Source of the DNA: a bacterium
GTDB lineage: Bacteria > Ratteibacteria > UBA8468 > B48-G9 > DTJG01
Direction of reading: 5' to 3'
Length of the DNA: 64,000 nt
Assembly: GCA_021800535.1 (NCBI GenBank)
Contig: JAJYYV010000005.1
Location: 3,607 to 67,606 of the forward strand
In this document: positions 45,507 through 50,372 of the stretch, piece after piece
Position numbering within the stretch: the first letter of the stretch is position 1
Layout of the letters: every line of letters begins with the position of its first letter
The notes under the pieces: generated by a model
Told to the model about the DNA's origin: nothing
What the model saw: only the letters and a program-made list of their open reading frames with translations
Database searches by the model: none
Position numbers and translations under genes: made by a program

Positions 45507-45513
45507 CTTTTAA

Positions 45514-45884
45514 CCTTTTTCCTCATACTCCTATTTGTCCGCGTGGGCATTCCTTAGATGTGGAGGCGGCGGGTACTGCCCCCTCATCCGTCGCATTCGT
45601 TTCGCTCGCTCCTTAAAGGGGGAACAGGTTCCCCCTTAATATTCCCCCTAAAGCATGAGGAAACCCTTTTTCCTCATACTCCTATTTGTCCGCGTGGGCA
45701 TTCCTTAGATGTGGAGGCGGCGGGTACTGCCCCCTCATCCGTCGCATTCGCTTTGCTCGCTCCTTAAAGGGGAACAGGTTCCCCCTTAATATTCCCCCTA
45801 AAGCATGAGGAAAACCTTTTTCCTCATACTCCTATTTGTCCGCGTGGACATTCCTTAGATGTGGAGGCGGCGGGTACTGCCCCC
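45514..45884 (-). repeat. Tandem ~150-bp repeats (about 2.5 copies), each containing the tmRNA 3' end
   Basis: Copies start at 45514, 45665 and 45815 (periods 151 and 150); tmRNA 3' 23-mer at 45561-45583, 45712-45734 and 45862-45884; few substitutions between copies. Confidence 0.95.
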
Positions 45885-46209
45885 GCGTCCAGAAGAGAAC
45901 AGGAAAGATATCTACCTATGTATCTCCGGTTTTTTTATCTTTTTCCAGTCTCCCCGAAGCAGGATTTATGGAAAAGATGTTTCTGTTATACTTTCTTCTG
46001 ATATCCAGAAACAAAAGTTTCTCAGAATAAGCCCTTTAGCGACTCGTTTTCAAATTCCAAGGGCGGGAATTTGAACGAGTGGCTGTTTAGTTAAGCAGCC
46101 ATAAAATTTGCCGTTGTGGCAGTTATGTTTTACCGGTTTTTAAAGGGCCCGGCACCTTTACAGGCAATCTTTTCCTTTTTTCTCTAATGTCGAAGCCTAT
46201 TTCGCCCCC
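45862..46209 (-). ncRNA. ssrA: tmRNA (one-piece), tag (A)ATTANFMAA
   Basis: 5' GGGGGCGAAATAGGCTTCGAC, 3' GCGGG-GGCAGTA-CCCGC-CGCCTCC-A, G3:U70 pair; ATAACT-GCC resume codon, tag ORF 46120-46091; adjacent to smpB. Confidence 0.95.
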
Positions 46210-46655
46210 CTACCTTTCATCTTTCTTTCTATTTGTCTTTTTACCTCTTTTTCTTTTATGACCTGTCTTTTATCAAAAAATTTCTTACCTTTTACAAGAG
46301 CAATTTCTATTTTTATGATACCATTTTTATTAAAATACACCAAAAGTGGGACTATTGTCAATCCTTTTTCCTGGACTTTTCTTTCAAGTCTTATAATTTG
46401 TCCTTTATGTAAAAGGAGTTTTTTTTTTCTTCTTGGGTTAATTTTTTCAAAAGCAGATTGATAAGGCGCTATATAAAAATTATAAACAAAAGCCTCTTTT
46501 TTTTCTATTTTTACAAAAGAGTCTCTAAGATTTGCAGAGCCCTGTCTGATAGACTTGACTTCAGGACCATAAAGAGAAAGTCCTGCTTCTAATTTTTCTA
46601 TAATTTCATATTCATGATATGCTTTTCTATTTTCTATTTTGGGAGATTTTTCCAT
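46197..46655 (-). CDS. smpB: SsrA-binding protein
   Basis: NRKAYHEY, EAGL.L.G.EVKS, KKLLLHK, GKK..DKR tail. Confidence 0.98.
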   Translation of the reverse strand: MEKSPKIENRKAYHEYEIIEKLEAGLSLYGPEVKSIRQGSANLRDSFVKIEKKEAFVYNFYIAPYQSAFEKINPRRKKKLLLHKGQIIRLERKVQEKGLTIVPLLVYFNKNGIIKIEIALVKGKKFFDKRQVIKEKEVKRQIERKMKGRGAK

Positions 46656-46658
46656 AGG

Positions 46659-47840
46659 TTAATTTTTTATTGGTAGAGAAAAGAAAAATATGGCTCCGGA
46701 TTCTTTATTATCTCTAACCCAGATTTTTCCCTTAAATAATTCTACAGCCATTTTACAGAAGGTTAAACCTAATCCTGTTCCATGTATAATACCTGCTTTT
46801 GAAAATTCAGCCTGGGCAAATTTTTCAAAAATTCTTTTTTTATCTTTTTTATGAATTCCAGGTCCTTTGTCGGAAATAGAAAAAATAATTTCATTTTTTA
46901 ATTTTGTCAAACCTATATTTACTTCAGAATCTTTAGGGGAATATTTTATTGCATTATCTAAAAGATTGTGTATAACCCTTTTTATCAAATTTCTATCAAT
47001 ATATATTGTCGGTAGATTATCTTTTTGTATAAAAATCTTTATATTTTTTTGTTCAATAACAGGTTTATGTTCTTCAACAATTTCTTCTAATATATCTTCA
47101 ATTTTGTTCTGGGTTAGATATGGCTTGAATTCTTTATGCTCTATTCTGCTGATATCAAGAAGATTGTTTATCATATTCCATAATTCATTTCCTAATTTAT
47201 TTATGATTTCAATATATTTTATATTATCCATTTTATTTTTTTCCTTAAAATCTTTTAAAATAGATGAAGAGGCAATCATAATAGCAGAAACAGGATTTTT
47301 CATATCATGGATTATCATATGAGTTAAGTCTTCCCTGGTTTTTTCTAATTTGTCTATATTACTTTTATACTTATAAAAATAAGCAATAGTTAAACAGGCA
47401 AGTTCATGGTGAAAGAGCATATCGTTTGAAAATATCATTTTTCCTAATTTTTTTTTGTCTTTGAAGTTTTTCAGCATTATCGGAAAAAGAATTTCTTCAA
47501 GTAGATGTACAAATAAAATAACTTCTTCTATTGGTGTATTATTTTTTGATAAACTGCGACCAATTTTAATCATATCTTTATAATGAGAGTTAATATTTTT
47601 GATTTTTAAAACATTTAAAAATATATCAATCCATTCTGAAAATATTTTATCTCTTTGAATATCTTTCAGGGAGGCTTGTTTTCCAAAAACAGATTTATAT
47701 TTATTAATCCATTTTTTTTTAATTTGTTCTTTATAAGGAGAGATAGTTAACAAAAATTCTTTTAAATATTTTTGATTTATCTTAAGTTTCGGTATAAAAA
47801 ATAGAGAGTTTTTATCTATTAAAATATTTTCTTTTTTCAT
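46659..47840 (-). CDS. Cytoplasmic sensor histidine kinase (helical N-terminal sensor + HisKA + HATPase)
   Basis: IHDMKNP H-box, NLLDNAIKYS, DKGPGI, GTGLGL; no TM segment. Confidence 0.9.
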   Translation of the reverse strand: MKKENILIDKNSLFFIPKLKINQKYLKEFLLTISPYKEQIKKKWINKYKSVFGKQASLKDIQRDKIFSEWIDIFLNVLKIKNINSHYKDMIKIGRSLSKNNTPIEEVILFVHLLEEILFPIMLKNFKDKKKLGKMIFSNDMLFHHELACLTIAYFYKYKSNIDKLEKTREDLTHMIIHDMKNPVSAIMIASSSILKDFKEKNKMDNIKYIEIINKLGNELWNMINNLLDISRIEHKEFKPYLTQNKIEDILEEIVEEHKPVIEQKNIKIFIQKDNLPTIYIDRNLIKRVIHNLLDNAIKYSPKDSEVNIGLTKLKNEIIFSISDKGPGIHKKDKKRIFEKFAQAEFSKAGIIHGTGLGLTFCKMAVELFKGKIWVRDNKESGAIFFFSLPIKN

Positions 47841-47844
47841 CAGA

Positions 47845-48726
47845 CTATGTTAGACTTGCCAGAATTTTTTTTATAATTTCCTGTCTTTCATTTATAATTT
47901 TTGAAATATTTCTTTGTCCGGATACATCATTTTTATTTTTTACAATATTTTCTTCAAAGGTGGCTGTCTCTTTTTTATAGAAAACCCCTAAAGATATGGG
48001 ACTATCTGTATTATAATCCCATTCTTTTATTTTATTCAGAGCAGATTGATAATCATAAATATTATGGTCTTTTAATGTATACACTCTTTTACTATAATAG
48101 TCATACATATTATAGAAACTGACACAAACCTGTAAAGTGTCAACAATGGAAAATCCTTTATGCAAGACAGCCTGTTTAAAAATATCCTTTAATAGGTCTA
48201 TTCCGTGTGTATAACCCCGTGCAATAAATGTTGCTCCTGAAGATAAAAGCAGATGCAAAGGATTAAATGGTATTTCCACTGTTCCTGCTGGTGTTGATTT
48301 TCCTTTAAATCCTAAAGGAGAGGTAGGAGTACATTGTCCAACTGTAAGACCATAAACCCTGTTGTTATGTACTATTACTGTAATATCAATATTTCTTTTG
48401 GCCGCAAAAATTAAATGTTCTAATCCCTCTCCATATGCATCTCCATCTCCGGCAAAAACAATGACTTTTAGCCTGGGATTTGCAATTTTAATGCCTTCTG
48501 CGGCTGGTACTGCTCTTCCATGAAGAGAATAAAAACTATTTACATTTATATAGTCAACAATTTTAGCATGACATCCTATTCCTGAAACAATTACAAAATT
48601 CTCTATTGGTATCTGGCCGCTTAATTCTGAGATAACAGATTTAATAGAATTAAGGATTGAAAAATTTCCGCATCCCGGACACCATGTGTTTTTGGCATAA
48701 GTATCTAAATTTTTTATGTCTATCAT
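47845..48726 (-). CDS. 2-oxoacid:ferredoxin oxidoreductase beta subunit (TPP-binding)
   Basis: WCPGCG, SGIGC, LHGR, GDGD, NNRVYGLT.GQ. Confidence 0.93.
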   Translation of the reverse strand: MIDIKNLDTYAKNTWCPGCGNFSILNSIKSVISELSGQIPIENFVIVSGIGCHAKIVDYINVNSFYSLHGRAVPAAEGIKIANPRLKVIVFAGDGDAYGEGLEHLIFAAKRNIDITVIVHNNRVYGLTVGQCTPTSPLGFKGKSTPAGTVEIPFNPLHLLLSSGATFIARGYTHGIDLLKDIFKQAVLHKGFSIVDTLQVCVSFYNMYDYYSKRVYTLKDHNIYDYQSALNKIKEWDYNTDSPISLGVFYKKETATFEENIVKNKNDVSGQRNISKIINERQEIIKKILASLT

Positions 48727-50372
48727 TGTTTTATTTTGTTTATAAGTTCATCTGCAGTAAATGGTCTGCCATCATATTTTAAAATTTTTCTATCAACAGT
48801 AATACCATAATATTTGACCAGAGATGCCAATTGTCCATCAATATTATTTTCAACACAGATAATTTTTGAAACCCCTTTTAAAGCATCGTTTAATCTATTA
48901 ATTGGAAATGGAGACATTACAATAGGTTGAATAACACGCATTCCAAGTATCTCTCCTGCTTCAATACAAACATCTTTGTTTGAACCCCAGGTCAAAATAG
49001 CCTCATTAGAATTTTTGTTTCCATATATTTTTAATGTTTCATGTTTTTCTACTTCTTCAAATACTAATTTGTTTTTTTTAAATCGTTTTTCCTGCATAGA
49101 TTTTGTTATATAAGGGTCCTCAGTTGTTATGCCATATTCATCATGTTCATAACTATTTATTTTTATAATTGCATTTTTATTTCCTGGGAAGGCGAGGGGA
49201 GACAGACCTGTTTCTGTATTAAGATATCTTTTAAATTGAGATTTTTCTTTTTCCCATAAACCAATATCTTTTTCTTGAAGATTTAAAAGTTCTGGAAGAA
49301 AACTATATGCTCCTTCAGCAAGGGTTTTATCAGAAATTATTATTGAGGGTATCTGATATTTCCAGGCTAAACTAAGGGATAATGCAGACCAGAAATATGC
49401 CTGATTGGCATCTCCGGGAGCAACAACAAATCTGAAAAATCCACCATGACCACATGTAATGGCAAATAAAAGATCTGATTGCCCTGTATATGTTGGAAGT
49501 CCTGTGCTTGGAGCAGTTCTTTGTCCAAGAATAATAACAATTGGTAATTCTGCCATTGAAGAAAAACTTAAACCTTCTACCATTAAACAAAAACCTCCTC
49601 CGGAAGTTCCTATTGCTATTCTTTCACCAGCATAGATACCGCCTAAAGCCATAAGTATAACTCCGATTTCACTTTCCGGCTGCAGGGTTTTAAGTGTTGG
49701 GTCTGTTATACCAGCCTGGGCAAGAAAATGTAAAATGCCTGTTGAAGGAGTCATTGGATAAGCCATATAGGTTGTTAATCCTGCTTTTAAAAGTCCAAGA
49801 CTTATAGCTTCATTTCCTGTAATCAAAGCAGAGGGTTCATTTGAACCAGTATCAATATTTATAAATTGTGATACATAGTCGTAGCCATGTTTTGCAATCT
49901 TAAGATTGAGTTCTGTTTCTTTGGGTATATGTTTTTTTAACACCTTTTCTGCAATGTCCCAGTTAATACCAATGGCTTTGCATAAAGCTCCAATTATACA
50001 TGTATTACCCATTACAGCAATACCGTTTTCTTCTTTTATAATTTTATCAATAGGTATGCCAGTGCCTTTTTCGGATTTGCCAGCATCTGAATTATAAAGA
50101 ATAAAAGTATTATTCTTTAGTTTGTCTTTATGTATATCAATAGTTTGCTGATTGAGTGCCAGTAGAATATCAATAGAATTATAGTGTGAACCTATTTGTT
50201 TTTCACAAGCCCTTATTATTGAGTAGGTATGTCCTCCTCTTATAAGGGAAGGATAATCCCTATAGATATATATTTTATATCCAAGATGGCTTAAAATTCT
50301 TCCAATAAGTGTTCCTGAGGTATCAATTCCTTCGCCTGCTTTACCTCCTATAAGAATGGATATTTCTTTCAT
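48723..50372 (-). CDS. 2-oxoacid:ferredoxin oxidoreductase alpha(+gamma) subunit
   Basis: GGKAGEG, IRGGH, YPMTP, TSGGGF.LM.E, KYDGRPF. Confidence 0.93.
   Translation of the reverse strand: MKEISILIGGKAGEGIDTSGTLIGRILSHLGYKIYIYRDYPSLIRGGHTYSIIRACEKQIGSHYNSIDILLALNQQTIDIHKDKLKNNTFILYNSDAGKSEKGTGIPIDKIIKEENGIAVMGNTCIIGALCKAIGINWDIAEKVLKKHIPKETELNLKIAKHGYDYVSQFINIDTGSNEPSALITGNEAISLGLLKAGLTTYMAYPMTPSTGILHFLAQAGITDPTLKTLQPESEIGVILMALGGIYAGERIAIGTSGGGFCLMVEGLSFSSMAELPIVIILGQRTAPSTGLPTYTGQSDLLFAITCGHGGFFRFVVAPGDANQAYFWSALSLSLAWKYQIPSIIISDKTLAEGAYSFLPELLNLQEKDIGLWEKEKSQFKRYLNTETGLSPLAFPGNKNAIIKINSYEHDEYGITTEDPYITKSMQEKRFKKNKLVFEEVEKHETLKIYGNKNSNEAILTWGSNKDVCIEAGEILGMRVIQPIVMSPFPINRLNDALKGVSKIICVENNIDGQLASLVKYYGITVDRKILKYDGRPFTADELINKIKQ

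Follow-up and report, generated by a model that had tools for sequence, protein, structure and literature searches.

The smpB gene ends inside the tmRNA gene and very probably contains its promoter: a conserved overlap in a small uncultivated bacterial phylum

What happens to the mRNA of a gene whose stop codon lies inside the RNA gene that follows it? This question is raised by the smpB-ssrA locus of the stretch of DNA analysed here, below called the window (64,000 nucleotides (nt); assembly GCA_021800535.1, contig JAJYYV010000005.1, positions 3,607 to 67,606 of the forward strand). SmpB and the transfer-messenger RNA (tmRNA) encoded by ssrA act in trans-translation, the main bacterial ribosome-rescue pathway. 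To our knowledge, the way in which cells balance SmpB against tmRNA is poorly understood. A sequence-only reading of the window had proposed that every maturation of tmRNA leaves one smpB mRNA without a stop codon, and that this feedback sets the SmpB:tmRNA stoichiometry. We find that smpB and ssrA form one compact, conserved unit, and the data strongly indicate that tmRNA is made mainly from its own promoter within smpB. The proposed mechanism thus appears half right: the non-stop consequence would follow from the anatomy of the locus, whereas the comparison of relatives speaks strongly against a promoterless ssrA and hence against the stoichiometric coupling.

All coordinates below are positions in the window, and all features of the locus lie on the minus strand. 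The smpB coding sequence (46197..46655, from the list of open reading frames (ORFs)) encodes 152 amino acids (aa). Its product is SmpB by Pfam (2e-53, 180.6 bits; residues 7-147 on profile positions 2-142 of 143) and passes the NCBIfam SmpB equivalog NF003843 (183.8 bits, cut-off 130). The C-terminal tail motifs GKK and DKR are present (GKKFFDKR...), and the protein ends ...VKRQIERKMKGRGAK, with the tail ...KMKGRGAK. The corresponding 3' end of the gene is AGG GGG GCG AAA TAG, and neither the ORF list nor the translated tail contains an in-frame stop before the TAG.

The tmRNA gene (45859..46209) matches Rfam RF00023 over its full length (model positions 1-374; 140 bits, gathering score 47). 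The first nucleotide of tmRNA, G1, is at 46209 and coincides with the third base of the smpB AGG codon. The two genes overlap by 13 nt (46197..46209; tmRNA nucleotides 1-13, GGGGGCGAAAUAG), which comprise this base, the codons GGG GCG AAA and the TAG stop at 46199..46197. Cleavage by ribonuclease P (RNase P) is predicted between 46210 and 46209. The acceptor stem, GGGGGCG/CGCCUCC, resembles that of tRNA-Ala, and in the Rfam alignment no 5' end other than 46209 brings its G3-U pair into register. The match closes with CAU at the position expected for CCA, and thus CCA is not encoded. The tag reading frame (46091..46120) translates to ATTANFMAA*, with hydrophobic residues before the stop and at a position that fits the Rfam alignment; the first alanine of the tag is supplied by charged tmRNA. 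ARAGORN reported no tmRNA in the window, although the Rfam match is strong, and therefore the overlap would escape annotation pipelines built on this program. The ORF, the Rfam match and the acceptor stem agree with each other and with the sequence-only reading, which had placed the stop codon inside tmRNA and G1 inside an arginine codon. We consider the reality of the overlap virtually certain.

The overlap is conserved. We compared 30 tmRNA loci of relatives with the window (31 loci of the order), locating smpB in the relatives by the GKxxxDKR motif. The smpB gene is upstream of ssrA in all 31 loci, and in 19 of them SmpB ends in xGAK* with the same 13-nt overlap. In the other twelve the distances between smpB and G1 are 7, 15, 32, 41, 48, 62, 72, 84, 118, 137, 142 and 191 nt. 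At the level of the phylum, 65 genomes (approximately 1-2.7 Mb) were searched for DKR codons exactly 57 nt before GGGGGCGAAATAG. This pattern was found in 25 genomes from four of the 18 genera: in 13 of 14 genomes of family f1 plus the window's own genome, and in all 11 genomes of genus g8 of family f2. It was not matched elsewhere in the phylum. All 25 strings read in frame with no earlier stop, and hence the overlap is neither a chance event nor an assembly error. It is retained in 24 of the 25 scored genomes of genera g1, g2, g3 and g8. The conservation in relatives that the sequence-only reading had set as a check is thus present in both sets.

No other SmpB in the compared set shares more than 66% identity with that of the window, and the overlap persists across this divergence. 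Base -1 relative to G1 varies among relatives and the GGGGG run is fixed; the residues encoded just before G1 vary freely. A tree of SmpB was built with the four tmRNA-encoded residues trimmed from the overlap rows and without locus L013, where the contig end cuts smpB. Genus clades are supported in this tree and deep nodes are not; it does not separate one origin of the overlap from several, nor does it settle whether the overlap is ancestral in the order.

Where does transcription of ssrA start? The sequence-only reading saw no -35/-10 pair in the 3' region of smpB. A consensus scan gives two. The first, TTGACA-18-TATTTT (46332..46361, 10/12 matches), is a predicted ssrA promoter. Its -35 box (46361..46356) coincides with the Leu-Thr codons of the SmpB motif G-L-T-I-V-P, and its -10 box (46337..46332) with Tyr-Phe codons; the spacer of 18 nt falls within the 16-18 nt expected of sigma-70-type promoters. 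Transcription would start near 46325 and yield a leader of about 115 nt. The second promoter-like site is TAGAAA-17-TATAAT (46507..46479). Since such a scan is noisy in AT-rich DNA, we tested the conservation of the first site. When the overlap loci are aligned on G1, TTGACA occupies positions -152..-147 in all of them and is followed, 18 nt on, by TAT TTT or TAT ACT.

The conservation of this site is seen at synonymous positions. We aligned the codons of 18 overlap loci, omitting L013 because its smpB is cut. Outside tmRNA, the residue is conserved and at least fourfold degenerate in 29 columns. In 26 of these columns from two to six codons are used; other Leu columns use four to six. Only three keep a single codon in 18/18 loci: TTG (Leu), ACA (Thr) and CTT (Leu). 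All three belong to the six degenerate columns that lie between the first base of the -35 box and the last base of the -10 box (hypergeometric P = 0.0055, columns treated as independent). The Tyr codon of the -10 box is TAT in 18/18 loci.

The loci without overlap are informative as well. Among those with short gaps (7-48 nt), TTGACA is kept in three of four, and the fourth has TTGACC. In relatives from genera g4, g6 and g9, smpB and G1 are 32-191 nt apart, and none of the eight loci has TTGACA at the Leu-Thr position: the codons are CTG ACC, TTA ACC, TTG ACG, CTT ACC, CTT ACG (twice), CTG ACA and CTG ACG. In five of these eight loci the TGA stop of smpB is embedded in a TTGACA hexamer with a -10 box downstream, and one more locus has TTGATA. 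Thus these lineages appear to carry an ssrA promoter just downstream of smpB.

The embedded stops form a small series of their own. Loci L009, L028, L021, L026 and L030 (g6 and g9) read GGT TGA CA, the smpB stop being part of the putative ssrA -35 box, and the -10 box follows after 17-18 nt.

We conclude that ssrA of the window very probably has its own sigma-70-type promoter inside smpB, and we regard it as likely that this promoter is functional. The first promoter is precisely the element that the sequence-only reading did not see. That reading held that a dedicated ssrA promoter in smpB as the source of all tmRNA would speak against its model. The predicted promoter comes close to this case, as it would be the main, though not necessarily the only, source of tmRNA. 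Given an internal promoter, most tmRNA would probably be made independently of smpB mRNA. Tying the supply of tmRNA to its own promoter would uncouple it from smpB mRNA, and therefore any feedback would act on SmpB alone.

The transcription of smpB itself seems to vary among lineages. In the window, smpB is preceded by a histidine kinase gene (46659..47840; Pfam HisKA, HATPase_c), by a gene similar to the beta subunit of 2-oxoacid:ferredoxin oxidoreductase (korB-like, 47845..48726) and by a gene similar to its alpha/gamma subunit (korA-like, 48723..50372). All three were taken from the ORF list and assigned by Pfam; the kor-like pair (47845..50372) contains the families POR, POR_N, TPP_enzyme_C and PFO_beta_C. 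The kor-like genes overlap by 4 nt, the korB-like gene and the kinase gene are 4 nt apart, and the kinase gene ends 3 nt upstream of smpB, just as the sequence-only reading had it. Transcription that reads through into smpB probably comes from the kinase gene. Genus g8 resembles the window in that smpB follows an upstream ORF. In genera g2 and g3, where the overlap is the same, the upstream context differs and a putative smpB promoter lies directly before the ATG. Thus smpB transcripts would come from an upstream operon in the former and from a dedicated promoter in the latter. Between smpB and ssrA there is no room for a terminator, so that a full-length smpB mRNA must run into tmRNA.

In eight loci of g2 and g3 (L007, L011, L016, L017, L019, L024, L025, L029) the site TTGAC(G/A)-17-TTAATTAT ends about 6 nt before the smpB start, and no Shine-Dalgarno sequence is present. 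This suggests that the smpB mRNA of these genera may be leaderless.

Taken together, these data are compatible with the following scheme. The tmRNA would be transcribed mainly from the sigma-70-type promoter in the smpB codons, approximately 150 nt upstream of G1, and RNase P would then remove the leader of about 115 nt from the precursor. The smpB mRNA would begin further upstream, here probably as part of a kor-kinase-smpB operon, and we infer that smpB is never transcribed in full without ssrA. A ribosome would terminate normally if it arrives at the TAG while the tRNA-like domain is still unfolded or uncut. After cleavage at G1 the smpB mRNA would end in ...AAA GGU AG, and later ribosomes would stall without a stop codon. 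The tmRNA-SmpB complex would then add (A)ATTANFMAA to SmpB(1-148), which ends ...KMKG with Gly148 as the last complete codon, and direct the product to proteolysis. The net effect would be a built-in damper on SmpB synthesis, stronger at higher trans-translation capacity, with no strict one-for-one coupling.

Some components of this scheme can be checked in the window's own genome. It encodes RNase P RNA of type A (RF00010, 244.1 bits) and ClpP (264.8 bits). The claim that RNase P cleavage at G1 leaves an smpB mRNA without a stop codon follows directly from the sequence, and the RNase P RNA gene is present; hence a non-stop fraction and negative feedback are plausible. The Pfam profile match ends at residue 147 and the cut mRNA would encode residues up to 148. 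The native SmpB of g6 relatives ends ...RRMKQG*, only one residue past the end encoded by the cut mRNA. So the truncated protein is probably still a complete SmpB, and it would be tagging, not truncation, that removes the product. The portion of PMC4151336 at hand contains no data on the loss of only the last four residues of SmpB. That an appreciable share of smpB mRNA becomes non-stop seems somewhat probable to us. The explanation as a whole, with overlap, internal promoter and non-stop damper combined, has slightly better than even standing. It is doubtful that the feedback has been selected as a function; a by-product that is tolerated seems more probable.

A number of observations weigh against this explanation or parts of it. 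The promoter case rests, by inference, on the sequence and its conservation among relatives. In AT-rich DNA the scan yields 35 promoter-like sites against a chance expectation of 26.5, and the -10 box of the window matches the consensus at 4/6 positions only. Related sequences are not independent, and the column statistics therefore overstate the case. RNA data add little here: in one metatranscriptome study, one of three runs shares words with the window (share 0.18), and one RNA contig of 205 nt matches at 45947..46151 with one base different. This sole matching contig lies inside tmRNA and is uninformative on the junction, the start and the 3' end. If the internal promoter is strong, read-through transcripts of smpB may be a small minority whose fate is perhaps immaterial. 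The conservation of the overlap is also open to a simpler account. Nine of the twelve non-overlap loci likewise start tmRNA with GGGGGCGAAATAG; the part of tmRNA that holds the TAG is conserved even where smpB ends before it, and thus its conservation needs no selection for feedback. One genome, G002 of genus g2, is the only one in family f1 without the overlap and has a TGA 7 nt before G1.

The complement of rescue and decay factors points in the same direction. The usual decay enzyme for non-stop mRNA in trans-translation is RNase R. Enzymes with an RNB domain (RNase R or II) were found in none of the 65 genomes of the phylum, of which 31 are at least 90% complete; the search detects its target in 11 of 14 control genomes. 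Completeness ranges over 54-97%, and so absence from a single genome is weak evidence and the uniform result across 65 is telling. The canonical arm of non-stop decay is therefore missing, and cut smpB mRNA could burden the cell repeatedly instead of serving as a control. An ArfB-like backup is present in the window's genome. This GGQ protein (141 aa, with a basic C-terminal tail; G000:C61:112308-112730, L152:1441-1866) scores below the NCBIfam ArfB equivalog cut-off (56.8 versus 100 bits), with only residues 19-53 matching, and is graded ArfB-like only. Full-length relatives of it occur in seven of the 65 genomes, and none was found in the 12 genomes of genus g2, which has the overlap. This low score and the lack of the protein in g2, like the missing RNB domains, count against a tidy regulatory circuit.

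Two components considered for the scheme were dropped. RNase R as its decay arm was given up, as no RNB domain was found in any of the 65 genomes. ArfB as a bootstrap for SmpB synthesis was abandoned as a general part, given its score below the cut-off and its absence from g2.

How else could the arrangement be explained? It may be a matter of packing without function: smpB would have lost its own stop, and its reading frame would now close at the first stop available, by chance a triplet conserved in tmRNA. Almost all SmpB would then be made from uncut transcripts, or read-through would be rare, and cut mRNAs would be a small tolerated loss of no regulatory meaning. We consider this a realistic alternative, if not a likely one. 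It agrees with the presence of the TAG in the tmRNA sequence of most non-overlap loci, with the freely varying residues before G1, and with the return of one lineage, G002, to an upstream stop. It agrees also with the fact that only the last four SmpB residues, beyond the Pfam profile, are affected. The internal promoter, by uncoupling tmRNA supply from smpB mRNA, fits it too, as does the range of distances between stop and G1 in other phyla, from -18 to +32 nt among the matches listed, with no single preferred solution. On the other hand, the overlap is kept in 24 of 25 genomes, although single-base changes in the variable, Lys/Arg-rich codons upstream of G1 could create a stop, and similar overlaps recur in several unrelated lineages. 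Neither of these two points is strong, as the sample is small and phylogenetically linked.

The strict form of the feedback is improbable. According to it, ssrA has no promoter, all tmRNA derives from a kor-kinase-smpB-ssrA transcript, and each maturation event yields one non-stop smpB mRNA, so that SmpB:tmRNA is fixed. The tight packing of the upstream genes, the impossibility of a terminator between smpB and ssrA and the presence of RNase P RNA speak for it. However, its premise of a promoterless ssrA, taken over from the sequence-only reading, is contradicted by the conserved -35 and -10 boxes inside smpB, invariant at synonymous sites in 18/18 loci. Moreover, TTGACA is lost exactly where another ssrA promoter exists, and in g2 and g3 smpB has its own promoter and another upstream context, yet the same overlap. 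It also counts against one-to-one production that tmRNA is normally far more abundant than operon-internal mRNA. Finally, the true 5' end of tmRNA or the stop of smpB might lie elsewhere, in which case there would be no overlap. The missing ARAGORN call and the six consecutive G at 46210..46205 could be cited for such a misannotation, but Rfam matches tmRNA over its full length, only G1 at 46209 suits the 7-bp acceptor stem and its G3-U, and base -1 varies in relatives where GGGGG is fixed. With no in-frame stop before the TAG and an identical arrangement in 25 independent assemblies, we give this possibility almost no weight.

An overlap of this type has been described before. In Candidatus Carsonella ruddii, Hudson, Lau and Williams (2014, Front Microbiol 5:421, PMC4131195), who cite Mao et al. 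2009 for the overlap, describe an smpB coding sequence that runs into ssrA in the same orientation, and note that maturation of tmRNA should cut the smpB mRNA and turn it into a non-stop substrate of its own product. The overlap was found 'nowhere else' among 2031 genome projects and was called unique. It occurs in half of the Carsonella strains, the extensions into ssrA are variable and random-looking, and the protein is without the central loop and the C-terminal tail. The word 'promoter' does not occur in PMC4131195. Apart from PMC4131195, full-text literature searches gave no paper that states both overlap and feedback, and the supplements of that article may list more overlaps.

The two cases are alike in that smpB extends past the 5' end of tmRNA in the same orientation, and the same feedback idea applies. 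They differ in that Carsonella is an extremely reduced insect symbiont, whereas genomes in the window's phylum have about 1-2.7 Mb. The window encodes a full-length SmpB whose tail is intact, 25 of the 65 genomes share one overlap length of 13 nt, and a predicted ssrA promoter is conserved in smpB. The feedback concept is thus already in print for Carsonella and is not new here. The window adds a second example to the one described earlier, and a much better-preserved one.

Other systems share single features with this locus. In Escherichia coli, arfA is reportedly controlled by a truncated non-stop mRNA that arises when RNase III cuts an mRNA hairpin (this is said to be the finding of Garza-Sanchez et al. 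2011). There, too, an endonuclease removes the stop of a ribosome-rescue gene, and the product is tagged by tmRNA-SmpB and removed as long as trans-translation is active. However, arfA involves RNase III and a backup factor, whereas the window would use RNase P acting on the partner RNA, with SmpB as the target. In animal mitochondria, where tRNAs punctuate the transcript and incomplete stop codons are completed by polyadenylation, an mRNA 3' end likewise arises when a tRNA-like RNA is excised and the cut falls at or within the stop codon. In contrast, the cut mRNA of the window, ...GGU AG, gives no stop upon addition of A. Other overlaps of coding sequences with tRNA genes have been listed as candidate sources of non-stop mRNA, for instance a FtsW-family gene and tRNA-Ile in 44 Helicobacter genomes (PMC4131195, Table 4). 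There as here, a coding sequence ends inside an RNase P substrate of the same orientation; unlike smpB, those genes have no functional tie to trans-translation.

Is the overlap restricted to Carsonella and the present phylum? We scanned species-representative genomes for tmRNA 5' motifs that are preceded, at a distance of 40-70 nt, by GKxxxDKR codons. At least 119 loci match, and each smpB frame was read to its stop. In at least 28 loci smpB overlaps tmRNA by 1-32 nt, in at least 12 the stop abuts G1, and in at least 79 there are gaps of 1-18 nt. As the pattern pre-selects close spacing, these counts demonstrate occurrence and not frequency or prevalence. Among the matches listed, the overlap is 32 nt in eight loci, 13 nt in one, 11 nt in four, 10 nt in one, 8 nt in six and 1 nt in eight. 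The Rfam 5' end coincides with G1 of the scan in 27 of the 28 overlap loci listed, the remaining one being L124, which is cut. All ten tested overlap ORFs encode full-length SmpB (171-215 bits). The overlap, therefore, is unique neither to Carsonella nor to the window's phylum.

The classes differ in taxonomic composition. Among the matches listed, the 32-nt class comes from metagenome-assembled genomes (MAGs) of Thermodesulfobacteriota, Deltaproteobacteria and Syntrophorhabdus; the 8-nt class from Patescibacteria and one Omnitrophica MAG; the 11-nt class from MAGs of Caldatribacteriota, Planctomycetia and Clostridia; and the 1-nt class mostly from Clostridia, with one Nitrospirae MAG. The eight 32-nt loci (L092, L098, L103, L118, L124, L131, L132, L149; Thermodesulfobacteriota/Syntrophia-type MAGs) encode SmpB ending ...ERGRKGFDGDR*, with the last ten residues read from tmRNA nucleotides 1-32 in a frame that differs from that of the window. 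In L131, L149 and L124 the RNase P RNA gene is about 3 kb from ssrA. In eight further loci (L040, L057, L060, L063, L101, L126, L145, L147) the stop is a TAG whose G is G1 of tmRNA, and RNase P would leave an mRNA ending in UA. One may speculate that in these eight loci of other phyla, with TA|G across G1, addition of A could complete the stop.

Promoter-like hexamers at the same place were seen in Patescibacteria. In these loci (L058, L062, L070, L086, L111, L117, L127, L136 and others) TTGAC(A/T) is followed, after 18 nt, by TATACT or TATAGT within smpB codons for G-L-T...Y-T/S, and these residues correspond in position to those that hold the predicted promoter of the window. An unrelated group may therefore have the same hidden ssrA promoter.

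The other end of the tmRNA gene in the window is also unusual. Directly 3' of tmRNA there is a tandem array (45512-45884, in the sense of the minus strand) of 2.5 copies of a 150-bp unit with 97% identity. Each copy begins with the last approximately 24 nt of tmRNA (the T-loop, the 3' half of the T-stem and the 3' strand of the acceptor stem), and the 3' end of tmRNA is therefore present three times. Similar duplications with periods of 173-195 nt were observed in five of the 30 loci of relatives (L005, L006, L007, L009, L015). These repeats resemble the scars or miniature elements that integrases may leave behind when they target the 3' end of tmRNA.

What does this mean for trans-translation in these bacteria? 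Here the overlap goes together with a full-length SmpB, and two families of a small uncultivated phylum have conserved it; thus the proposed non-stop feedback can now be studied in normal-sized genomes and by comparison of lineages. The internal promoter alters the behaviour to be expected, as the supply of tmRNA would be uncoupled from smpB mRNA, and a promoter lying in smpB codons would be a clear case of synonymous sites under a second functional constraint. If the absence of RNB-domain enzymes is true, the phylum runs trans-translation without the usual nuclease for non-stop mRNA. If cut smpB mRNAs are rare, the finding is an example of extreme gene packing. A bolder view, which we consider unlikely, is that RNase P processing of tmRNA sets the 3' end of smpB mRNA as a widespread, selected design in many mostly uncultivated lineages. 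Such a design would span the window's phylum, the Thermodesulfobacteriota-type genomes with 32-nt overlaps, Patescibacteria, Caldatribacteriota, Planctomycetia and Clostridia. The smpB stop would lie at, across or inside the cleavage site, the output of SmpB would be tuned by the activity of its own system, and tmRNA would be supplied from a promoter hidden in the smpB codons. If true, this would overturn the view that the overlap is confined to Carsonella and would amount to a general autoregulatory circuit for trans-translation.

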